From Promethearchaeati archaeon (GTDB lineage: Archaea; Asgardarchaeota; Heimdallarchaeia; Heimdallarchaeales; Heimdallarchaeaceae): a DNA stretch of 64,000 nucleotides. Made by a program: the position numbers and the translations under genes. Positions 23,211 through 63,725 of this stretch are shown one piece after another (the first letter of the stretch is position 1; each line of letters opens with the position of its first letter). Under the pieces are notes generated by a model. That model did not search any database. It was not told the origin of the DNA and saw nothing but the letters and a program-made list of their open reading frames with translations. The stretch is from NCBI GenBank assembly GCA_013166775.1, contig JABLTJ010000006.1, forward strand, positions 1 to 64,000. The letters are read 5' to 3'.

Positions 23211-24593
23211 ATGAATGACGATTATTTAGATACACCTATTTCGTGGGGAAACGAAATAATTAACTTTTACATTCAAAAGGAGTATAAGAATCAAACAAAG
23301 CTTCTTCATCCTCCTGAGTTTTCGAAAGAAAAAATGTATAAAGGAACAATTGAAGAAGGATTAGACAAAGTATTGAATAATCCCATCGGTTATGATGTTA
23401 CTTTTGATGAACTTGTAAAAGAAAAATATACTGAAGGAAAACCAATAACCTTTGTCGTAGATGATCACACAAGACCAAATCTACACACAAAGATAATCTT
23501 ACCAATCATGATTGAACGAATTAAATCACTTGGAATTCCTGAAAAGGATTTTCGAGTTCTAATCGCAACTGGAACACATAGATTACCTAGAGAAGATGAA
23601 TATCCTAAGATTGTAGGAGAACCTATTTACTCAAGGTATAGAGAAAACATAGTTGCACATGATTGTGACAAAAATGTCAAAATGATTGGAGAAAGTGATG
23701 CTGGAACACCAATGGGTTTCGATAACTTGGTTTTTGAATCATCGATTCTAGTACCAATAACTGACAGTGAATTACACTATTTCGCAGGTGTAGCAGGAAC
23801 AATCAAAGAAATGTGCCCTGGGATTGCAGCAAGACAAACAGTAAGAATAAATCATCCAAAGATGTTTCACAGAGAATTTGGTTTTGTACCTGGCTGCGGT
23901 TTAGGTTGTACAGAAGAAAATCCAGTTATTACTGATATTAAAAATATGGTGAGTATTGTTAAAAAGCAAGTAACTATTTTTGGTATTGATACCATTGTTA
24001 CAGAAGGAGAAATTGTCTATATCAACGCTGGTGATCTTGTTGATTTACATGATGAAGCTTCAGATATAATAGTAGATATGAGAACTGTCAAACTTTCAAA
24101 ACCAGGAAACATAGTTATCTCTGGAATGCAAAGTTGGGGAATTAATCTCTATCAAGCTGGAAAAGGAATTCATGCAGCATGGAATGCAGTAGGTAAGGAT
24201 GGAAATAGTGAAATTATTGCTGTTGCACCTTTACCTGATAGAATTGGGAATGCCAATTACGAGAAGGTTATGATTGAAGCTAAAGATATGTCTTTACAAG
24301 AAGCTTTGGAATACATTTTAGACAACTACTGTACAGAAGATACATTCAAAATTGGTAACCAAAAACCTATAGATTCACTTCGTATTCTTAAAACAATTGG
24401 GGAAGGTAATTTGAAATTTGTTTCAAATATGGATAGCGAAGAACTAAAGATCTATAGAACAACTCCAATAAAGAAACCTGACGAAGGACCTGTTGAAGCA
24501 ATAAGAAGAGAAGTAAAAGATTATATGAGTAAAAATCCAGAAGGAATAATATACATTATGGATGATCCAGGATTGTATATTATTATTGAATAA
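23211..24593 (+). CDS. larA: LarA (lactate racemase, nickel-pincer) superfamily protein
   Basis: DDHTRP, ATGTHR, HD, HYFAG..G..K...PG, NH and NLYQAGK motifs. Confidence 0.85.
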   Translation: MNDDYLDTPISWGNEIINFYIQKEYKNQTKLLHPPEFSKEKMYKGTIEEGLDKVLNNPIGYDVTFDELVKEKYTEGKPITFVVDDHTRPNLHTKIILPIMIERIKSLGIPEKDFRVLIATGTHRLPREDEYPKIVGEPIYSRYRENIVAHDCDKNVKMIGESDAGTPMGFDNLVFESSILVPITDSELHYFAGVAGTIKEMCPGIAARQTVRINHPKMFHREFGFVPGCGLGCTEENPVITDIKNMVSIVKKQVTIFGIDTIVTEGEIVYINAGDLVDLHDEASDIIVDMRTVKLSKPGNIVISGMQSWGINLYQAGKGIHAAWNAVGKDGNSEIIAVAPLPDRIGNANYEKVMIEAKDMSLQEALEYILDNYCTEDTFKIGNQKPIDSLRILKTIGEGNLKFVSNMDSEELKIYRTTPIKKPDEGPVEAIRREVKDYMSKNPEGIIYIMDDPGLYIIIE

Positions 24594-24607: not shown

Positions 24608-24865
24608 CTATAATTCGATTGTATCTTCAGGCCACATTTTTTCAACAACTTCTGCATTACATTTCATGCAGAGATTCTTCTTTTGGATAATACCATCTCT
24701 ATCTGTAGAGAAGTTTTGTATTAATCCTCTGTCACACAAAATGTCTGATCTACAATCTGAACAATAAAAATATCTGCCCTTTTGTTTGGGAGACCAAAGA
24801 TATTTGCTACAAGAAGCACATCGATCTCGTAAATCACATTTTAGGTGTTGTGCAATAATAGTCAT
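24608..24865 (-). CDS. Small Cys-rich zinc-finger protein
   Basis: CASC, CSDC and CMKC plus two more Cys in 85 aa. Confidence 0.7.
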   Translation of the reverse strand: MTIIAQHLKCDLRDRCASCSKYLWSPKQKGRYFYCSDCRSDILCDRGLIQNFSTDRDGIIQKKNLCMKCNAEVVEKMWPEDTIEL

Positions 24866-24869
24866 AAGG

Positions 24870-25097
24870 CTAATCCTCTTCTTTCTTCATTAACCAGTCA
24901 TGATAATCTCTTTTGCGTTGTCTATCTTTTCTATCAATTTCTTCATCACTCTCACCCATTTCCTCTTTGAATTCTTCTTTAATTGTCTTCTTCACTTTCT
25001 CAAACTCTCCCCTTCGAAAAGATAATCCACAGTCTAGGCAGACATAAAAGGGGGGTCTCCATTTAACAATACCACCACAATCCTGACACTTTGCCAC
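24870..25097 (-). CDS. Small zinc-ribbon protein with charged helical tail
   Basis: CQDCGG...YVCLDCG; GGTGAG Shine-Dalgarno before GTG start. Confidence 0.75.
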   Translation of the reverse strand: MAKCQDCGGIVKWRPPFYVCLDCGLSFRRGEFEKVKKTIKEEFKEEMGESDEEIDRKDRQRKRDYHDWLMKKEED

Positions 25098-25193: not shown

Positions 25194-25267
25194 TGGTGCA
25201 CGCACCGGGACTCGAACCCGGGTCAGCAGCGTGGGAGGCTGCAGTCCTACCACTAGACTATACGTGC
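25194..25267 (-). tRNA. tRNA-Gly(CCC), intronless, genome-encoded 3' CCA
   Basis: GCACGTA/TGCGTGC acceptor stem, GCAGC-CTCCCAC-GCTGC anticodon arm, GGTTCGAGTCC T-arm, ends ACCA followed by an oligo-T run. Confidence 0.97.
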
Positions 25268-25320: not shown

Positions 25321-26514
25321 TTATGTCTCTATCTTAGATAGTATCTCTTCAAGAAATTCGATTAAAGTCTTTATTTCCTCTTCTGTGTTATAAAGATGTG
25401 TTGAGATTCTTGCTAAATCATTATATGGTAGTTCATACATGAATAAATGTGCACACAAAGCTCCACTCCTGATAATTATGTTTTTCATATCATCAAGTAT
25501 AATTGCTGTGTCATTTGCATCAAGAATATCACTTGCAAAAGTTGTAATAGGTCCATACTCAACTCCTTCGATTTCGATTAGTTCAATACTAGGTAAATTA
25601 CTAATACCCTTTCTAATCAGTGTACTAAGTTTAAGTTCATGTTCTTGAATTTTTGATAAACCGACATTTGATAAAAGCTCCAAGCTGTTTGTTAAACCCA
25701 AGATGTTTGCTAAATTCAGGATTCCACATTCAAATTTCGAACCAGAGGAAGTTAGATGAAACATTGTCTCTTCAAGAGCTATAATTGAACCACCTCCTAC
25801 TATTAGAGGATTCATTGCTTTTTCAATATCGTTGGATAGAATTTGGAGTGCTAGTCCTTGAGGTCCTAGAGCACCAACACAACTAGCTGTTAAAATGATA
25901 TCTGGTGAAATTCCATTCAATTCAATAGGCTCATGTCCTACTGAATTGCTAATATCTAAAATAAAAGTTGCTTCTATCTCATGACATAATTTTGCAATTT
26001 TCTTCCAATCTCTTTTTATCCCATTGGTAGGAGTCAATGAAGAAAGAATCAGAATATCAGCTTTGGATGTAATCTGCTCGTGTATTTTATCTGTTAGTTC
26101 TTGTTCGTCTTCAAAGTTGAGGTATTGTAGTTCATTCCCAAAAGATTGGTGGGTTTTTATTACTGGAGCAAGAATTGAATGATCTTCAAGGATACTTGTA
26201 ATAATTCTCCTCTTATCAATGGCTTCCAATGAGAACAAAGCATTTGTTAATGCTGTTTCTTTGGATGGTAAAAACGAAACCTGTGTTGTTTCTACTTTGA
26301 AGAAATCTGCTATATTCTTTCTATTATTTTCCAACTTCTTCATGCTCTCCATTGCTTCGTGATGCACACCTCTAATAGCTGCTGAACCTTCTTTCTGATA
26401 GAAGTCAACAATCGTGTCTAAAGAAGAAACGGGCATTTTACCTATGGTTGCTGAGTCAAGGTAGATCTTGTCTTCTTGTAGATTAAAATCATTTCCGAAT
26501 CTTGTAATTGTCAT
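25321..26514 (-). CDS. SufS-like (class V aminotransferase) protein lacking the PLP lysine
   Basis: YLDSAT, GGGSI, RSGALCAH; the SGHK motif reads ASCV. Confidence 0.85.
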   Translation of the reverse strand: MTITRFGNDFNLQEDKIYLDSATIGKMPVSSLDTIVDFYQKEGSAAIRGVHHEAMESMKKLENNRKNIADFFKVETTQVSFLPSKETALTNALFSLEAIDKRRIITSILEDHSILAPVIKTHQSFGNELQYLNFEDEQELTDKIHEQITSKADILILSSLTPTNGIKRDWKKIAKLCHEIEATFILDISNSVGHEPIELNGISPDIILTASCVGALGPQGLALQILSNDIEKAMNPLIVGGGSIIALEETMFHLTSSGSKFECGILNLANILGLTNSLELLSNVGLSKIQEHELKLSTLIRKGISNLPSIELIEIEGVEYGPITTFASDILDANDTAIILDDMKNIIIRSGALCAHLFMYELPYNDLARISTHLYNTEEEIKTLIEFLEEILSKIET

Positions 26515-26736
26515 ATTACTAACGATGAGTTATTTGTACTCCTTTAAAACATTACTAGGGAAAGATAGGTAAAAACGACATACTAAATTATTTCTTTAGT
26601 AAGAATGAAGTAGTTTGAACAGAAAAATTTGTTAATATGAATGTTCACTTTCTATACTAGGGAATGATCGAAAGGCATTTAGTAAAGCAAAAGAGCTATG
26701 CCAGAAAGAAGCTTATGTGACCCTCAATAACTGTTT

Positions 26737-27930
26737 CTAAATCTCTTCCATTATCGATCTAAGGAGTTCGTTGAATTTTCTTATATCCTCTTCAGTATTA
26801 TAGACATGAGTAGAAACTTGTATGAGAGAATCCATCCCAATTTCATCCATAAACAAGTGGGAGCACAAAGCTCCGCTCCTGACTGAGATTTTTCCTAAAT
26901 CTTCTAAAATAATCGCTATATCATGAGCATCTATTTCTTCACTCATAAAAGAGAGGATGGGTCCGTATTCTACTCCATCACTTTCCATTAAACTGATTTT
27001 AGAAGCATCGTTTAATCCATCAATTATATGATCTCTCAATTTTGTTTCATAGGATTGTATTTTTTCAAATCCAATATTTTTGAGTTCTGTTAAACTATTT
27101 TCCAATCCTACAATAGCAGCTAAATTCAATTGACCAGGCTCATATTTGTTACTTCCTGAAAGTAATTTGAATGAATTGGTGTTTAGAGATACTATTGAAC
27201 CACCCCCTACTAAAAATGGTTCAAATGTCTTATCTATATCCTCAGCTAGTATCTGGAATGCTATTCCAGGTGGCCCCAATGCTCCTGAAGAACCAGAAGA
27301 AAGCACTATATCTGGAGAATGCTGAGTAAAATCATATGGTTCATGTCCAACAGAATTACTGATATCTAGAATGAAAGGAACTTCCTTTTCCTCACAAATT
27401 TTTGATATACTTCTCCAATTTCTTTTGACCCCCATACCAAGAGTCAATGATGATAAAACAACTGCTTTTGTTTCAGAGGAAATTCTTTCGTTCAATTTAT
27501 CTACAAGATTTTCTTCATCTTTAAGAGATAGAAAATCAATCTCCAAATTATATAACTCACTGATTTTTATTATTGGTGCAAGAATAGAATGATCTTCCAG
27601 TACACTGGTCAGTATTTTGCTTTTTCCAGATTTATCAAGATAAAATAGGGAATTAAGAATTGCAACTTCTCTTGAGGGTAGGAAGGATAGCTGATTAGGA
27701 GCAATACTGAATACTCTGGATATGGCATTTCTCTTTTCTTCAAGGATTTTCGAAGCTTCAATGGCCAACCTATGAGTACCTCTAATTGTCCCACCGATGT
27801 TGGTTTCATAGAAATCTTGAATCTTTTTTATCGAAGAAGTTGGAAGCCTTCCGAGAGTTGCAGAATCTAAATAGATGTCTTCATCAGGAAGTGAGAACTC
27901 TAAATCGAAATTTTGTCTATTGTTAGACAT
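26737..27930 (-). CDS. SufS-like (class V aminotransferase) protein lacking the PLP lysine, tandem paralogue
   Basis: YLDSAT, RGTH, GGGSI, RSGALCSH; the SGHK motif reads SGSS; probable start at ATG 27930. Confidence 0.85.
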   Translation of the reverse strand: MSNNRQNFDLEFSLPDEDIYLDSATLGRLPTSSIKKIQDFYETNIGGTIRGTHRLAIEASKILEEKRNAISRVFSIAPNQLSFLPSREVAILNSLFYLDKSGKSKILTSVLEDHSILAPIIKISELYNLEIDFLSLKDEENLVDKLNERISSETKAVVLSSLTLGMGVKRNWRSISKICEEKEVPFILDISNSVGHEPYDFTQHSPDIVLSSGSSGALGPPGIAFQILAEDIDKTFEPFLVGGGSIVSLNTNSFKLLSGSNKYEPGQLNLAAIVGLENSLTELKNIGFEKIQSYETKLRDHIIDGLNDASKISLMESDGVEYGPILSFMSEEIDAHDIAIILEDLGKISVRSGALCSHLFMDEIGMDSLIQVSTHVYNTEEDIRKFNELLRSIMEEI

Positions 27931-28016
27931 GTATAATGAGAACAAAACATGTACTATTATAAAATATTTGTTTGAAAACATCATTTTTTTATATTAGGCT
28001 ACTTTTTCGCTGATTA

Positions 28017-28466
28017 ATGTCTTCCTCTGATGAGTATTCTATCATAAAACAAGATATTCAAAAAATCATGAAATCATATACTGAGCTTCTTGAAGTGATA
28101 TCAGAAAAAAATTCAAATGAAGTTAACCAAATCTTATGGAAAATACGAGCAGATTTGGAAACAATTGTCATTGAATTCAAGAGTTTGATTACTGATAGCT
28201 TACTGATAGAGAATTGGCAAGAACAATTCCATTCAGACTTTAAGGGAACAAAATCAAAAGAGAAAGCTATTTTTAAACTACAAGAATTTAATATGAGTGT
28301 AGGTGAAATTATGGACTTATTCTCCAAAAAAAAGAAGGAATGTTACCAATATCTTTGGAAACTTAAAGAAGTAATATCTTCTGTGATTTCAGCTTTTCCC
28401 AAAACTAGATTGAAATGGGAAGACAATCAATTTCAGGAAGAGAAAGAGAAGATTTTTGAGATTTAG
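28017..28466 (+). CDS. Hypothetical all-helical protein
   Basis: Clean ORF with internal repeat LWKIRADL/LWKLKEVI. Confidence 0.65.
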   Translation: MSSSDEYSIIKQDIQKIMKSYTELLEVISEKNSNEVNQILWKIRADLETIVIEFKSLITDSLLIENWQEQFHSDFKGTKSKEKAIFKLQEFNMSVGEIMDLFSKKKKECYQYLWKLKEVISSVISAFPKTRLKWEDNQFQEEKEKIFEI

Positions 28467-28511: not shown

Positions 28512-29015
28512 ATGTGGTTGATGAGTGTTAGTCCAATCAAGAAAGAATTCCCTGATGATATGGATAATATCAGGGACGCAATGAAATTGGAAAAATACAT
28601 TTGTCCGCATAGAGGAATAAACTATCCCTGTGTAATCTGCAAAGATTGCAGAGATATGGATCTAAGACAATTTCCTCTAAAAAATGGTTTTATTGAGAAA
28701 ACCAAGAATTCAAGTTTAATTTCACTTATTTTAGAACTCAGAGATCCATTCGATGACATGCTGTTAAGAAGGTTAAGTTTTGCACTTTCAGAAGCAACTG
28801 GAATTGTTCAAAAAGAACCAGAACCAGGTTTTTCGATCACATTCTATATCTCTGAAGCACTAATGGAAAAAGTACAAGAACCTGAAAAATTAGTGAAATT
28901 CATCTCAAATTTTCAACACACTTTCCTCTCAGAGACAATAGCTGCACGAAGTGCAATAAACAAATGGGAACGGACCACAACAAAAAGATTACTCTGGGAT
29001 ATGAGCATAGTTTAG
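28512..29015 (+). CDS. ARPC4 (Arp2/3 complex subunit 4)-like protein
   Basis: IEKTKNSSLISL...D..D..L...P.PGFSITFYI...KLVKFI..F...E......IN...R matches the ARPC4 pattern IEGSINSVRVSI...KPVEGYDISFLIT...KLVDFVIHF...EI....SVNARAR; similar length. Confidence 0.7.
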   Translation: MWLMSVSPIKKEFPDDMDNIRDAMKLEKYICPHRGINYPCVICKDCRDMDLRQFPLKNGFIEKTKNSSLISLILELRDPFDDMLLRRLSFALSEATGIVQKEPEPGFSITFYISEALMEKVQEPEKLVKFISNFQHTFLSETIAARSAINKWERTTTKRLLWDMSIV

Positions 29016-29040: not shown

Positions 29041-30159
29041 TCAGGAAACGCTCTTCCAATATACTCCTAAATCATCAGCATGCTTCCTAACATTATACAT
29101 TTCTGAAGTAGTTGGCTTTTTTTTGATTTCAGGATACATCTCTGTTCTAAGAACCTTATACTCAGGTCTGTATTGACCCATAATATTAACTAAAGGAGTC
29201 TTTAGATTTTCGTTCACCCAATTTAGAATTGGAATTGAACAACAGTTTGTGTGGTTGGGCATTACAAGATGTCGAATGATGTATTCTCCACTTCCCCGTT
29301 CCTCTATCATTTTCATATTTCGTTGAAGAGCTTCCCAGTATTTAGATGCTTTAGAATATTTAGTTGCGCAATCGTTGTTACTATACTTCATATCTGGCAA
29401 CCAAATATCGAAAACGTCTACTAGAATCTTCATGCTAGTTTCAGTAAGATACATATTACTATTCCAGAGCATAGGTAAATCTACCTGAGCTTCCAAGAAG
29501 GACTCTAAAATTAAATGAAGGTTGGGTGTAGGTTCTCCACCAACAAAGTTAATATTTCTAACGCCTTGACTCTTTAGACTATAATACATTTGAGCTAAAT
29601 CTAATGGAGTATGACCTTTACCTTTGAATCTTTCAAATGCAAATTCTTGACTTATATCGTGGTTCTGACAAAAGACACATTGGAATGTACAACCATAAAA
29701 GAAAATTGTTCCACTAGGCACAATAGGACTCTCTTCTCCCATATGAACAAAAGCTGAAGAGATGTAAGCTTGTCCATCAACACCGCAATTACCTATTTTA
29801 CCTCCAGCTCTGTCAGCTTTACATCTATTCTCACAGAATTCACAAGCAGAGAGTATATCCTTTGTTATCATAACCTTGAGCTTTAGATAGTTATTCTTCC
29901 GTATTTCTTCTTCCTTATGTTTAGCAAAAACTTCTTTTTCTATATCCTCAAGAGGTACAGTTTGTTTTTCTTCTAACCACGTTTTGAATTTTGTATGATA
30001 ATGTTCATGAATGTCCAAAAGATCTTTCTGTGATTTCTTCTCATCAATAGGTACATAAAACAAGCGTGCAAGTTTATATCTAGGGATTCTTTTTCCTTGG
30101 AAGATTTCTCTGTACTCAACTAATCTATCTTTAAGTTCAAATTGTTGCCAGACAGACAT
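29041..30159 (-). CDS. pflX: PflX-like radical SAM protein
   Basis: HMGEE.PIVPSGTIFF.GCTFQCVFCQNHDIS, GGEPTPN, WNSNMY, RHLVMP and MGQYRP motifs. Confidence 0.9.
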   Translation of the reverse strand: MSVWQQFELKDRLVEYREIFQGKRIPRYKLARLFYVPIDEKKSQKDLLDIHEHYHTKFKTWLEEKQTVPLEDIEKEVFAKHKEEEIRKNNYLKLKVMITKDILSACEFCENRCKADRAGGKIGNCGVDGQAYISSAFVHMGEESPIVPSGTIFFYGCTFQCVFCQNHDISQEFAFERFKGKGHTPLDLAQMYYSLKSQGVRNINFVGGEPTPNLHLILESFLEAQVDLPMLWNSNMYLTETSMKILVDVFDIWLPDMKYSNNDCATKYSKASKYWEALQRNMKMIEERGSGEYIIRHLVMPNHTNCCSIPILNWVNENLKTPLVNIMGQYRPEYKVLRTEMYPEIKKKPTTSEMYNVRKHADDLGVYWKSVS

Positions 30160-30204
30160 AGCATCTCTTCTTTGTAAAGCCCACATTAAGAAAATTTACT
30201 CATA

Positions 30205-31066: not shown

Positions 31067-32107
31067 ATGAATCTAATGACTGAATCTACGTTACATGAAG
31101 CTGAATTCTATGAATTAATAGATTATGATGAGCAAATAGTATGTTGCCACTTATGTCCTCATGAATGTAAATTAGAATCAGGGGAAAGGGGAATCTGTAA
31201 AGCTCGAAAGAACATTTTTGGAAAGCTATACAACCTAAATTATGGTTTTACAGAAATGAGAATAGATTTGATAGAAAAACAGCATGTTTATCATTTTTTC
31301 CCAAATTCAAGAGCGCAAACATTCGTAACATTCAATTGTAATCTTGACTGCGATTTCTGTACTGATCCTCTAAAATCCTTCATAGATCCAGAGAAGAATC
31401 CTGCAAAAAAACTTTCACCAGATCAAGCAATTATGTTTGGAATGGCTTCAGGTTCAAAGGTAATATGTTTCGGAGAATCTGAACCTCTTATCTCGTATGA
31501 ATGGGTAAGAGATACTGCAAAATTAGCAAAGGAAAGAGGTTTGAAAGTACTATTAAGAACAAATGGTTATTTCAAAGAAGCTCCTTTGAGAGAAATTTTA
31601 AGATTTGTTGATGCTGTTAAAATCGATATTAAAGCTACTAATAATGAAGGTTATATCAGATTATGTGGTGGTGGAAATTTCGAACATGTCAAAAACTCAA
31701 TTAAGATTATTCATGAAATGGAGAAACTGATTGAATTATCAATAGTAATCCACGATACTTTTAATAATGCTGAGGAGTCAGTAAGAAAATTATCTGACTG
31801 GATAAAGACTGAACTCTCACCAGGTGTTCCATTACACTTATCAAGATTAAAACCTGCTCATAGAACAAAACATCTACTTCCTACTTCACTTGAATTATTG
31901 GAAAAAACTTACAATATAGCAAAAGAAATGGGATTACAGTTTGTTTATCTAGATGATGTTCCTGATCATGATTCAGGAAATACATACTGTCCTCAATGTG
32001 GAGAATTATTAATCAAAAGAACTTCAATCGGAACTGAAGCAAGAAGAATATCTTTACAAGGCCACTGCAATAAATGTCAATCTCCTTTGAAGATAATAAT
32101 GTCATAG
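31067..32107 (+). CDS. AmmeMemoRadiSam-like radical SAM paralogue
   Basis: CHLCPHEC, IEK, CNLDCDFC, TYCPQCG and CNKC motifs. Confidence 0.85.
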   Translation: MNLMTESTLHEAEFYELIDYDEQIVCCHLCPHECKLESGERGICKARKNIFGKLYNLNYGFTEMRIDLIEKQHVYHFFPNSRAQTFVTFNCNLDCDFCTDPLKSFIDPEKNPAKKLSPDQAIMFGMASGSKVICFGESEPLISYEWVRDTAKLAKERGLKVLLRTNGYFKEAPLREILRFVDAVKIDIKATNNEGYIRLCGGGNFEHVKNSIKIIHEMEKLIELSIVIHDTFNNAEESVRKLSDWIKTELSPGVPLHLSRLKPAHRTKHLLPTSLELLEKTYNIAKEMGLQFVYLDDVPDHDSGNTYCPQCGELLIKRTSIGTEARRISLQGHCNKCQSPLKIIMS

Positions 32108-32452: not shown

Positions 32453-34411
32453 TCACTTAGCTTTAGCTTTCTTAATCTTCTCTTTATTCCCTTTTGAAAT
32501 AGAAGATTCTAAAGCAAGTGCCTCATATTTATCAGCAACATAACTATAATCAGGAGAAAGAGCCTCACGCAGAACTTCATGGAAATTTCGAACAGGAATA
32601 ATCTCTACTTTACCTTTATACTTCTCTTCAATCTTTACATCTTCAATATTCTGAAAAGGAATTATAATGCGTTTGATTCCTGCTTCAGCAGCAGCTTCTA
32701 TTTTGGCTGTAGCACCTCCAATAGGTATAACCACTCCTCTAACTGTTAAGCTTCCAGTCATTGCTGTATCTTGTCTTATTGGTGCATTTTCCATTGCTGA
32801 AATTATTGCTGCAGCTATTGAAACAGATGCAGAATCACCTTCGACTCCTGCATAAGCACCTACAAATTGGATATGGTAATCGTAATCAGAAATATCTTTG
32901 CCCACATACTTTTTGACTATAGCAGAAACATTTTGCACAGCTTCTCTAGCAACTATTCGCAGTTGACCAGTTGCAACAATTTTTCCTTCTCTTCTACTAA
33001 ATGCTGGTACAACTTCAGCTTCAATAGGCATGACTATACCAGATCGCTGATTTATGACTGCTAATCCATTTACTCTTCCTGCTAAAACATTTTCAGTTTC
33101 AAATATTTTGTAGAGTTTTCTATCATCTGCATAAGAATCACTTATTTGATTTTCAAGTGTTCTTGCGAGAGTTTTTGCTAATCTAACTGTTTCAACAGTA
33201 ACTAGAGGTTCATTCTTTTCTTTTGAAAGATCACCTGCTGCACGAATTAAACCTCCAAGTTCTCTTAACCTTAGAGTAAGCTGGTATTTTCTATCTGCTC
33301 TTCTTTGTGCTTCATAAATGATTTCCTCAACAGCTTCATATGTGAAATGAGGTATTCTTCTATCCTTGACAATCTCCTGTGCACAAAATCTTGCTAGCTT
33401 TCTTCTGTTTTCAAGAGTATCTGGCATTGTATCTTTCATATAAACTTCATAACCAGAGCCTTGGATTCTCGATCGCAAAGCTGGATGCATATTCCTGGTT
33501 GTTTCAATATTTCCAGCTGCGATTAAAACAAATTTGCATGGTACTGGTTCTGTTCTAACCATTGCCCCACTACTAAGTTCTGATTGACCTGTAATTTGTA
33601 ATTTTCCTTCTTGCATCGCAGTTAGAAGTTTTTGTTGAGTACGCATTTCAAGTGTTCCGATTTCATCAGAGTATAAGACTCCTAAATTTGATTTATGAAT
33701 TAATCCAGCTTCGACTCTTTCATGTGGAGGAGTACCTAGTCCCCCGCTTTGAAAGGGATCATGTCGAACATCACCTAACAATGCTCCCGCATGACTCCCT
33801 GTTGCATCATTAAATGGAGCTGTATCTTTCTTACTACTATCCACTAATAATTTAGGAATTAACATCTCAGTTCTCCCTCTTGATTGATTGAGCATGAAGA
33901 AGATAAAGAAACCTACAAACATCGCCATCAATAGGGTTTGAGGTTGCACAGCAGGATTTCCGGCTGTAGCGATTAATGCATATCCAATAATTGCCAGTAG
34001 TATTGCCAATGAAATAATAAATCGTTTATTTCCACTTTTTCTTGCAACCTCTGCATCCATTTCTACTTTTCTAGCTCCATGTCCTGCAGGTAATGTTGCA
34101 ACTCTAGGTTGATTAGGATATTTTGGATTAGGGATACATAAAACATCAACTAATTCTTCCTTAGGAAGAAGCTCAGCCATAGCTTGTCCAAGCATACTCT
34201 TTCCTGTTCCAGGCTCACCGATTAACAGAACATGACGGCGTTGTAGAGCAGCTTTCTTTATTATTTCCACAGAATTATCTTGACCAATAACTTGATCAAT
34301 TAAACGAGGAGGTACTGAGATTTCACTAGTATCATTAAACTCAATGTCTAATAATGAATCTCTTTTGGCTTTTTTTTTAGTAGCCTCTTTTGCTTCACCC
34401 ATGCCTACCAC
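32453..34411 (-). CDS. lonB: Archaeal membrane-anchored Lon protease
   Basis: GEPGTGKS, TM insertion, LLGDVRHDP, EGDSAS (catalytic Ser) and AKIEAA (catalytic Lys). Confidence 0.96.
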   Translation of the reverse strand: MVGMGEAKEATKKKAKRDSLLDIEFNDTSEISVPPRLIDQVIGQDNSVEIIKKAALQRRHVLLIGEPGTGKSMLGQAMAELLPKEELVDVLCIPNPKYPNQPRVATLPAGHGARKVEMDAEVARKSGNKRFIISLAILLAIIGYALIATAGNPAVQPQTLLMAMFVGFFIFFMLNQSRGRTEMLIPKLLVDSSKKDTAPFNDATGSHAGALLGDVRHDPFQSGGLGTPPHERVEAGLIHKSNLGVLYSDEIGTLEMRTQQKLLTAMQEGKLQITGQSELSSGAMVRTEPVPCKFVLIAAGNIETTRNMHPALRSRIQGSGYEVYMKDTMPDTLENRRKLARFCAQEIVKDRRIPHFTYEAVEEIIYEAQRRADRKYQLTLRLRELGGLIRAAGDLSKEKNEPLVTVETVRLAKTLARTLENQISDSYADDRKLYKIFETENVLAGRVNGLAVINQRSGIVMPIEAEVVPAFSRREGKIVATGQLRIVAREAVQNVSAIVKKYVGKDISDYDYHIQFVGAYAGVEGDSASVSIAAAIISAMENAPIRQDTAMTGSLTVRGVVIPIGGATAKIEAAAEAGIKRIIIPFQNIEDVKIEEKYKGKVEIIPVRNFHEVLREALSPDYSYVADKYEALALESSISKGNKEKIKKAKAK

Positions 34412-62232: not shown

Positions 62233-62508
62233 ATGAAGTCAGGTGTCAATTGGTTGCATCAACGATTTGTTAGCTCCATAGTAGAAAGTTGTACAAAAGA
62301 CCAAAGCTATGTAATCATGTTAAAATGGGATGCAATAAATGAAGTTCATACGAAACTAAAACAGAAGTGTGAACTAGTACAACAAATAGGTGGTATTATA
62401 GAGAAATACCAATATAAGGATTTAAAAATATCCTTCTATAAAACAGGAAAACTGTTGCTAACAAATGTGAATCATATAGATGTTTTGCTGAAAGAACTAT
62501 TCAAGTGA
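62233..62508 (+). CDS. Small hypothetical protein co-transcribed with iscS-iscU
   Basis: Overlaps the iscS start (GTGA); single Cys (ESCT) and ISFYKTGKLLL. Confidence 0.6.
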   Translation: MKSGVNWLHQRFVSSIVESCTKDQSYVIMLKWDAINEVHTKLKQKCELVQQIGGIIEKYQYKDLKISFYKTGKLLLTNVNHIDVLLKELFK

Positions 62509-63725
62509 TAACAATGTCTAACGTTGAAGATTTATTAAAACAACACGGAAAGGCAATCAAAGAAGTATATCTAGATTGGGAGAATGGTACAAGAATAGAA
62601 GAAGAAGTGCTTGAAGCAATGAAACCATTTTATTTAGAAAAACAATTTGGCAATCCTGCAATTACGCATAGAGTTGGTTGGGAGACGTATGATTTTTATG
62701 TAAAAGCAAAAACAACTCTAGCAAAACCTCTGAATGTTCAACCACAATCCATCGCGTTAACTCATAGCTTCACTGAATCCAATAATCTAGCTATCAAAGG
62801 TTTAGCGAAGATGAATAAAAAAAGAAAGAAAATTATTGTCTCTGAAGTAGAACATCTTAGTGTTATTCATACTGCCAAATCTATGTTCAGTGATGACTAC
62901 AAAGTAGTGATTTTACCTGTTTCAAATGATGGAACTGTGAATGTCGACATGCTTCAAGAGGAACTAGATAGTGAAACTTTGCTAGTTAGTTTACAATCTA
63001 TCAATCATGAAATTGGGACAATACAACCGGTAAGAGAAGCTTTGGAAATTGTAAAAGACTTCGATGAGAAAATATTCTTTCATACTGATGCTACTTCGGC
63101 TTTTGGAAGAATTCCTCTAGATCTGAGTAATTTAGATGTTGATTTAGCTTCCTTCAGTAGTAATAGAATACTTGGTCCAAAAGGGATTGCTGGGTTGTAT
63201 ATCAAGGAAGGGATAAAACTAAAATCAATTTATGAAGGGCAACTCAGTGTTGAAACTCTCTCACCAGATGTGGAAAATCCTGCATTACTTGCTGGTTTTG
63301 CGAAAGCAGTGGAATTGCAATTTAAGCAGTTTGAAGAAATAAGAGAACATACAATTAAACTTAGGGATAAATTGATGTATGGGTTGCATACAAGTATTGA
63401 GCGAACTGATATTAATGGTCCTGCAGGAAATAGAAGAGCACCTGACAATGTTAACATAAGTTTCCTTGGATGCGAAGGTGAAGCGTTAACAGTCGATTCT
63501 TCAATGAACGGCATTTATGCTTCAAGTGGAAGTGCTTGCACTAGTAGAGTATTAATGCCAAGTCATATACTTACAGCAATTGGTCGGAAACCTGAGGAAG
63601 CTCATGGAAGTTTATTGATGAAAGTCAATAGATTAAACACTGAAGAAGAAATAGATTACGTATTAGAAAAAATGCCTAAAATTATTGAGAGAATAAGATC
63701 AATAACGGGTGGAATACAAATTTAG
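62505..63725 (+). CDS. iscS: IscS/NifS-like protein with Lys->Arg at the PLP site
   Basis: FGNP, TESNN, EH.SV, NHEIGTIQP, SSNRILGPKG and SGSACTS; immediately upstream of iscU. Confidence 0.88.
   Translation: MITMSNVEDLLKQHGKAIKEVYLDWENGTRIEEEVLEAMKPFYLEKQFGNPAITHRVGWETYDFYVKAKTTLAKPLNVQPQSIALTHSFTESNNLAIKGLAKMNKKRKKIIVSEVEHLSVIHTAKSMFSDDYKVVILPVSNDGTVNVDMLQEELDSETLLVSLQSINHEIGTIQPVREALEIVKDFDEKIFFHTDATSAFGRIPLDLSNLDVDLASFSSNRILGPKGIAGLYIKEGIKLKSIYEGQLSVETLSPDVENPALLAGFAKAVELQFKQFEEIREHTIKLRDKLMYGLHTSIERTDINGPAGNRRAPDNVNISFLGCEGEALTVDSSMNGIYASSGSACTSRVLMPSHILTAIGRKPEEAHGSLLMKVNRLNTEEEIDYVLEKMPKIIERIRSITGGIQI

Follow-up and report, generated by a model that had tools for sequence, protein, structure and literature searches.

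How does a protein that keeps the whole fold of a SufS-type cysteine desulfurase take part in sulfur metabolism once the lysine that anchors its pyridoxal 5'-phosphate (PLP) cofactor has disappeared? This question is raised by two genes, here called A and B, in a 64,000-nucleotide stretch of contig JABLTJ010000006.1 (hereafter the window) from a Heimdall-group (Asgard) archaeon of the family Heimdallarchaeaceae, and it bears on the open question of how anaerobic archaea move sulfur into iron-sulfur (Fe-S) clusters without, or beside, cysteine desulfurases. A and B are two intact open reading frames (ORFs) lying head to tail on the minus strand, and their products are 49% identical over their full length. 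An original prediction, made from the letters of the window, described them as SufS-like proteins that have lost the PLP lysine and kept the persulfide cysteine, and proposed that they are non-catalytic sulfur or Fe-S carriers, possibly acting as a heterodimer, rather than decaying genes.

Active site and fold of the two paralogues

Both proteins match the class V aminotransferase profile (Aminotran_5, PF00266) over its full length (profile positions 1-371), with 207.5 bits for A and 185.9 bits for B against a cut-off of 21.5. The best NCBIfam model for both is that of SufS (TIGR01979), yet their scores of 195.2 bits (A) and 181.1 bits (B) stay far below its curated cut-off of 475.1. Neither protein has a long SSGSACTS-type loop or an iscU neighbour, both of which are found with a third class V gene near the end of the window, and their closest resemblance is to type II SufS. 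To assign residues, A and B were aligned with HMMER to the Thermococcus onnurineus desulfurase of known structure (5b7s), and the codons were checked directly. Where SufS reads SGHK, A reads ASCV and B reads SGSS; in both proteins EHHS has become EDHS and DAAQ has become DISN, and the RSGHHCA loop is RSGALCA in A and RSGALCS in B. The codon check places Val213 of A and Ser215 of B at the lysine position (Table 1), as originally read, and the alignments to 5b7s agree with the changes proposed for the other two motifs and with the retention of the loop cysteine, which in A is the equivalent of E. coli C364. Arg349 of A corresponds to E. coli R359. The C-terminal substrate-binding arginine (R379), thought to be missing from the upstream copy, is indeed replaced by Gln371 in B (26818-26820) and is retained as Arg369 in A (25408-25410); this column holds Arg in A and the A clade, and the Gln of B is shared by the single-copy genera and by the wider lysine-less clade described below.

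A search of 5.8 billion proteins recovered 78 close relatives of A and B (at least 40% identity), beyond which scores fall sharply to ordinary lysine-bearing desulfurases at 28% identity, and all of the named close relatives belong to Heimdallarchaeota or Heimdallarchaeaceae. Residue counts were made in one alignment of 72 full-length relatives with 43 canonical sequences, using E. coli numbering. The K226 column contains lysine in 0 of 72 relatives (I, V, L, M, S and others occur), the H225 column contains histidine in none (C, S or N instead), and the stacking histidine, H123, is D or E in 70, whereas all 43 canonical sequences have H, K and H at H123, K226 and H225, respectively. The changes reach the remaining cofactor contacts as well: the phosphate-binding threonine (T95) is Glu in 72/72, T278, which is the threonine supplied by the partner subunit, is mostly I or L, the Q203 column holds N, Y, H or Q, and N175 is also lost. 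Directly before the loop cysteine, all 72 relatives have Leu, as compared to His in 95% of canonical sequences, the HH of the loop having become AL. Retained positions include the loop cysteine (Cys354 of A, 72/72), the Arg349 equivalent (70/72), Arg48, the mobile-loop arginine equivalent to E. coli R56 (R in 65 and K in 6 of the relatives), and the aspartate pairing with the pyridine nitrogen (71/72), as well as His334, the equivalent of the SufU-zinc-contacting His342 of B. subtilis (59/72, and 30/30 in the wider clade). This motif pattern is far beyond chance, and the combination anticipated by the original prediction, with a conserved cysteine beside an unconserved lysine column, is what the relatives display. 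The idea that another lysine has replaced the catalytic one was rejected at the sequence level: no invariant lysine was found anywhere in the alignment of 72 relatives, and the best lysine column (92% K, 8% R) lies one column before a conserved non-catalytic lysine of canonical SufS.

As judged from these residues, the PLP site of A and B is wholly lost, and the loss extends well past the lysine. If PLP is no longer bound, then A and B would be unable to cut sulfur out of cysteine, and in this sense the predicted absence of PLP-dependent desulfurase activity holds up. That either protein still depends on a cofactor, with PLP or pyridoxamine 5'-phosphate (PMP) held non-covalently in support of some reaction, we regard as very improbable: the lysine-less IscS of Archaeoglobus fulgidus does bind PMP, and the aspartate facing the pyridine nitrogen is nearly always present in the relatives of A and B, but practically all other PLP contacts have changed (H123 to D/E, Thr to Glu, with H225, T278 and N175 lost), and far more of the PLP site is retained in the A. 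fulgidus protein.

The fold and the selective regime both speak to whether the genes are maintained. An AlphaFold2 model of A, built from the family alignment, reached a pLDDT (predicted local distance difference test) of 91.9 and a predicted template modelling (TM) score (pTM) of 0.92, and it superposes on the SufS of E. coli, B. subtilis and T. onnurineus with TM scores of 0.87-0.90 at 22-26% identity. The ratio of nonsynonymous to synonymous substitution rates (dN/dS, pairwise Nei-Gojobori) in close genome pairs was 0.10-0.29 for A and 0.08-0.22 for B; in five shared genomes, for which values are ratios of sums, it was 0.18 for A, 0.17 for B and 0.075 for canonical SufS. A and B are less constrained than canonical SufS, yet clearly under purifying selection. 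Their divergence is what a view of A and B as decaying SufS duplicates, i.e. pseudogenes in the making, would have to build on, since same-genus identity is only 58-59% for A and 46-47% for B as compared to 81-82% for SufS, and dN/dS is ~2.3 times that of canonical SufS. However, the reading frames are unbroken in 26 of the family's 28 genomes, the motifs are invariant, dN/dS is far below 1 and the clade predates the Asgard families, so that decay has virtually no chance of being correct and is already refuted at the level of sequence. The original view of intact, non-decaying genes is supported by this purifying selection, by the absence of the lysine from every one of the 72 relatives and by the confident fold model; neither a substitute lysine nor lysine-bearing relatives with relaxed selection on A and B came to light. 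Taken together, the model and the substitution rates indicate that A and B are maintained proteins with a predicted type II SufS fold.

Distribution and age of the lysine-less clade

The close family of A and B is present in 26 of the 28 Heimdallarchaeaceae genomes in GTDB and, at E <= 1e-60, in 0 of 272 GTDB genomes of other Asgard families. Within the genus of the window genome, B and A sit in tandem, except in one genome where 5.6 kb lies between them, while a second genus of the family carries two unlinked copies and three further genera carry a single copy, as do most of the other Asgard loci examined. In the tree, the A clade is separate from the B clade and the single copies group with B; therefore, the duplication is older than the genus, with gain or loss of A following later.

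The pair is the Heimdallarchaeaceae branch of a wider lysine-less Asgard clade, and what had been noticed in one window is thus not a local oddity. In a profile search of 1.84 billion cluster representatives, 31 of the best 150 matches were without the lysine. The wider clade has a signature of its own (Arg for Q203, Gln for the substrate Arg, a new His four residues later, and the RSGxxC loop), which was found in 30/30 of the best loci of an Asgard-wide genome search (families f2, f3, f4, f8, f9, f11 and f30) and in one locus of family f28. The motifs of the lysine-less clade as a whole (SufS fold, no Lys or His at SGHK, RSGxxC, and a His four residues after the RxS/QxS position) were read in A, B and 40 Asgard sequences from other families. 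Only such motif-read sequences were counted, the wide-profile tally of 196 of 300 genomes not being specific, as lysine-bearing SufS also score, to ~1e-121. In a tree, the 37 lysine-less sequences included, which come from 10 or more Asgard families, form one clade with 100% support in the Shimodaira-Hasegawa-like approximate likelihood ratio test (SH-aLRT), apart from 28 lysine-bearing SufS, Asgard ones included; the tree was built with a quick method, in which fast-evolving rows can attract one another. Because the lysine-less sequences form a single clade, loss of the lysine in this Asgard SufS-like group was probably a single and old event. The few named database members of the wider clade are all Asgard (Promethearchaeota, Kariarchaeaceae and Ranarchaeia) and all annotated as PLP-dependent enzymes, and a protein atlas look-up for the family returned generic class V clusters only.

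Conserved across the whole lysine-less clade are the cysteine loop, a His-Asp pair, Asp187 and a few structural residues, and the other pocket residues vary by branch. This variation is relevant to the suggestion that A and B are neofunctionalised enzymes, in which the PLP pocket has been rebuilt, e.g. into a carboxylate/histidine metal site that includes the cysteine, or into a Cys-His dyad. The close family does have invariant residues that are absent from canonical SufS (Glu86, His112, Glu137, Arg168, Trp170, His194, Thr372, His373 and His356, the last of which sits two residues after the loop cysteine), and the signature of the wider clade could be read in the same way. Pocket residues that differ between branches nevertheless fit better with pocket filling than with a shared catalytic site, and the genomic context suggests no substrate, which makes a new enzymatic activity, in our view, quite unlikely.

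A possible persulfide relay and its genomic setting

The lost and the kept residues fall on different steps of the known SufS reaction. In E. coli SufS, K226 and H123 have acid/base roles in C-S cleavage, R56 and R359 matter moderately for cleavage and are essential for the handover of the persulfide to SufE, and in SufS-SufU structures R359 lies within 3-4 Å of the incoming acceptor cysteine (PMC11507941). For B. subtilis, the SufS-SufU interface has been discussed as involving His342 (PMC13066941). Because the cleavage residues (K226, H123) have been lost and the transfer residues (R56, R359, C364) kept, our preferred reading, to which we would give roughly an even chance, is that A and B relay persulfide sulfur, or act as adaptors, without PLP. 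A persulfide would form on the loop cysteine, its sulfur coming either from the genome's one normal SufS or from sulfide or polysulfide, and this sulfur would next pass to an acceptor that works in the making of Fe-S clusters or thio-cofactors, the proteins presumably acting as a SufS-like dimer that may be homo- or heteromeric. A candidate donor exists in the lysine-bearing SufS of the window genome. Of the carrier role in the original prediction, the sulfur-carrying part agrees with this reading and may apply, but with a single invariant cysteine per chain in the close family, the proteins are unlikely to carry Fe-S clusters on their own. The A/B heterodimer is plausible, since the tandem genes are co-retained within the genus; it cannot be the general or obligatory mode of the family, since single-copy lineages exist.

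The window genome (3.85 Mb, 89% complete) contains that one lysine-bearing SufS and no other. A gene for an 81-aa protein with a CAGC motif precedes the SufS gene, whose own end overlaps with the beginning of a gene for an NAD-dependent epimerase-like protein; the vicinity contains no genes for Fe-S assembly. The third class V gene of the window, which is IscS-like, has Arg in place of the PLP lysine (SSNR), keeps the SSGSACTS loop and is directly followed, past the window end, by an intact IscU, the only U-type scaffold found in the genome; by its residues, this is a dead IscS-IscU pair of the A. fulgidus kind. The combination of a normal SufS, a lysine-less SufS-like protein and a lysine-less IscS recurs in G001, a complete 1.4-Mb genome from a different family, and in G074, a genome from another genus of Heimdallarchaeaceae. 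Loci of other Asgard families (L096, L099 and L100) hold clusters of canonical SufS, IscU and an IscS-like gene; the HK motif of the latter is ND in the family of L100 and YK in that of L099, and dead or altered IscS beside IscU is therefore common in Asgard genomes. No SufE, SufU or SufBCD genes lie near A or B. For the SufBD core (PF01458), the window genome and 30 genomes of its family were covered: among the 24 further genomes within the genus it was detected in only 4, and the other genera of the family carry an SmsB-like protein of 316 aa. The scaffold of the SUF system or the SUF-like minimal system (SMS) may have been lost in the genus.

Co-occurrence of this kind is also what would be expected if A and B were non-catalytic structural or regulatory partners, which pair with active SufS or dock on IscU, use the loop cysteine as a cluster ligand or to tune the enzyme, and carry no sulfur. 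The lysine-less A. fulgidus IscS and Methanosarcina acetivorans IscS1 are precedents, an active SufS is present in every genome for which class V genes were listed, and the histidine that contacts the SufU zinc in B. subtilis has been kept. We nevertheless consider such a role unlikely, given that A and B are never beside iscU or canonical sufS in the loci examined, that IscU already has a lysine-less IscS partner of its own in the same window, and that the type II cysteine loop is short, known SufS proteins needing an acceptor that comes to the loop.

Coordinates of the two genes and of the features around them are collected in Table 1. The frame of B is open to a first ATG at 27984 (26737..27984, 415 aa), and its true start is probably the in-frame ATG at 27930, where the database gene call P0052 (397 aa) also begins and which fits the lengths of orthologues; the A/T-rich, TATA-like stretch abutting the first ATG would favour the same start. 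A gap of 222 bp separates B from A, and the TATA-like element within it, read by eye from the sequence, suggests that A has its own promoter. With TATA-like boxes in gaps of this size and a tRNA-Gly(CCC) right after A, the two genes look to be separately transcribed. An operon of A with the two zinc-ribbon genes downstream was considered and rejected, as the tRNA gene intervenes and both gaps, of ~220 bp, have TATA-like boxes.

Table 1. Genes A and B, their motif residues and other features discussed in the text; positions refer to the window unless a contig is named.
Feature	Position	Strand	Remarks
Gene A, downstream copy	25321..26514	-	397-aa ORF; lysine-less SufS-like; C-terminal Arg369 kept
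Gene B, upstream copy	26737..27930	-	397 aa; lysine-less SufS-like; Gln at the C-terminal Arg position
Cys212-Val213 of A, in place of His-Lys of SGHK	25876..25881	-	Val213 = 25876-25878; Cys212 = 25879-25881
Ser214-Ser215 of B, in place of His-Lys of SGHK	27286..27291	-	Ser215 = 27286-27288; numbered from start 27930
Cysteine loop of A, Arg349-His356, RSGALCAH	25447..25470	-	Cys354 = 25453-25455
Cysteine loop of B, Arg351-His358, RSGALCSH	26857..26880	-	Cys356 = 26863-26865
TATA-like TTTTAAAG	26542..26549	-	~30 nt ahead of the gene A ATG
A/T-rich, TATA-like TAATATAAAAAA	27985..27996	-	Abuts the first ATG of B; 55-66 nt ahead of ATG 27930
tRNA-Gly(CCC)	25194-25267	-	Directly downstream of A, between A and the small zinc-ribbon genes
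Two small Cys-rich zinc-ribbon-like proteins	24870-25097, 24608-24865	-	75 and 85 aa; no family match
LarA-like protein	23211-24593	+	Lar_N domain, E 9e-40; convergent with the A side of the locus
149-aa helical protein	28017-28466	+	No Pfam family; divergent from B
ARPC4-like protein	28512-29015	+	PF05856, 31 bits; divergent from B, after the 149-aa gene
Two radical S-adenosylmethionine (SAM) proteins and archaeal LonB protease	29041-30186, 31067-32107, 32453-34411	-, +, -	
IscS-like protein, third class V	62505-63725	+	Arg for PLP Lys (SSNR); SSGSACTS loop kept
Intact IscU	contig C65:63738-64235 (L005:2674-3171)		Past window end, directly after the IscS-like gene
Lysine-bearing SufS	contig C51:13475-14740	-	Only one in the window genome
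81-aa protein with CAGC motif	contig C51:14753-14998	-	Precedes the lysine-bearing SufS

The neighbourhood of the pair is stable within Heimdallarchaeaceae. The small zinc-ribbon genes stay beside A across the family, and B, the 149-aa gene and the ARPC4-like gene are found together in 14/14 loci with a B-type or single copy, from five genera, a grouping that persists even where the surrounding synteny breaks. Synteny around A and B is otherwise general within the family, which renders the neighbours uninformative. The two radical SAM proteins and the LonB protease lie in the same family-wide syntenic block, and nothing ties them to A or B.

Several observations weigh against a relay function. 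The literature searched yielded no experiment on any member of the family. Neither SufE nor the SufBD core was found anywhere in the 89%-complete window genome, and its sole U-type scaffold already adjoins a lysine-less IscS. The loci examined in other Asgard families share no recurring neighbour and indicate neither donor nor acceptor, and the own-family neighbours, namely the ARPC4-like gene and its partner, the tRNA, the zinc-ribbon genes and the LarA-like gene, do not point to a partner either. In addition, the kept residues belong to the donor side of the SufS-SufE/SufU interface, and what use an acceptor or relay would have for them is hard to see, while the family-specific invariants Glu86, His112, Arg168, Trp170 and His373 could mean a new site.

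A more specific form of the relay reading can be put forward tentatively, and we think it rather less than probable. It holds that the clade is an Asgard PLP-independent sulfurtransferase built on the whole SufS fold, which would be loaded from environmental sulfide or polysulfide or by active SufS, and would feed a lysine-less IscS-IscU of the minimal iron-sulfur (MIS) type or other thiolation. In Heimdallarchaeaceae, duplication would have given an A/B heterodimer whose two sites differ, the carboxylate-binding Arg being present in one and Gln in the other. Recent work on SMS and MIS states that the protein handing on sulfur is unknown (PMC12192291, PMC13066941); a sulfide-fed sulfurtransferase, if true, would be the missing protein link in sulfide-based Fe-S assembly.

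Comparison with known systems

We found no description of a lysine-less type II SufS in the literature searched, an absence that is not proof, and the lysine-less SufS-like family of Asgard archaea is apparently undescribed. All database records examined for the family are annotated as 'PLP-dependent enzyme' or 'cysteine desulfurase', so that desulfurases are over-counted when the metabolism of the closest archaeal relatives of eukaryotes is reconstructed. The family offers a concrete and expressible candidate for a sulfur relay.

The nearest known proteins are the type II desulfurases SufS and CsdA (E. coli 1jf9/6mr2, B. subtilis 5xt5, T. onnurineus 5b7s; TIGR01979; EC 2.8.1.7), with which A and B have in common the full-length fold, the short RSGxxC loop, the equivalents of R56 and R359 and, in most members, that of His342. 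They differ from these enzymes in lacking the Schiff-base lysine and the stacking histidine, and in having replaced the contacts to the PLP phosphate and O3'. The small persulfide carriers SufE, SufU and TusA resemble A and B in the proposed role only, having one conserved cysteine and no lyase chemistry; they show no homology to A and B and have small, unrelated folds, whereas A and B would reuse a whole 44-kDa enzyme fold. The closest precedent is found among type I proteins. In A. fulgidus IscS (PDB 4hvk, 4eb5), the lysine is replaced by Asp199, the protein is inactive, and its loop cysteine has been proposed as a cluster ligand in the IscS-IscU complex, and M. acetivorans IscS1 is a further lysine-less type I IscS (PMC8918507, PMC7585200). 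As in A and B, the lysine has been lost from these proteins while the protein has been maintained and the loop cysteine kept. However, they are encoded beside iscU and still hold PMP or PLP, whereas A and B are of type II, have no iscU at their side and retain almost nothing of the PLP site. The family gives A. fulgidus IscS, the one dead desulfurase that has been studied well, a counterpart of type II.

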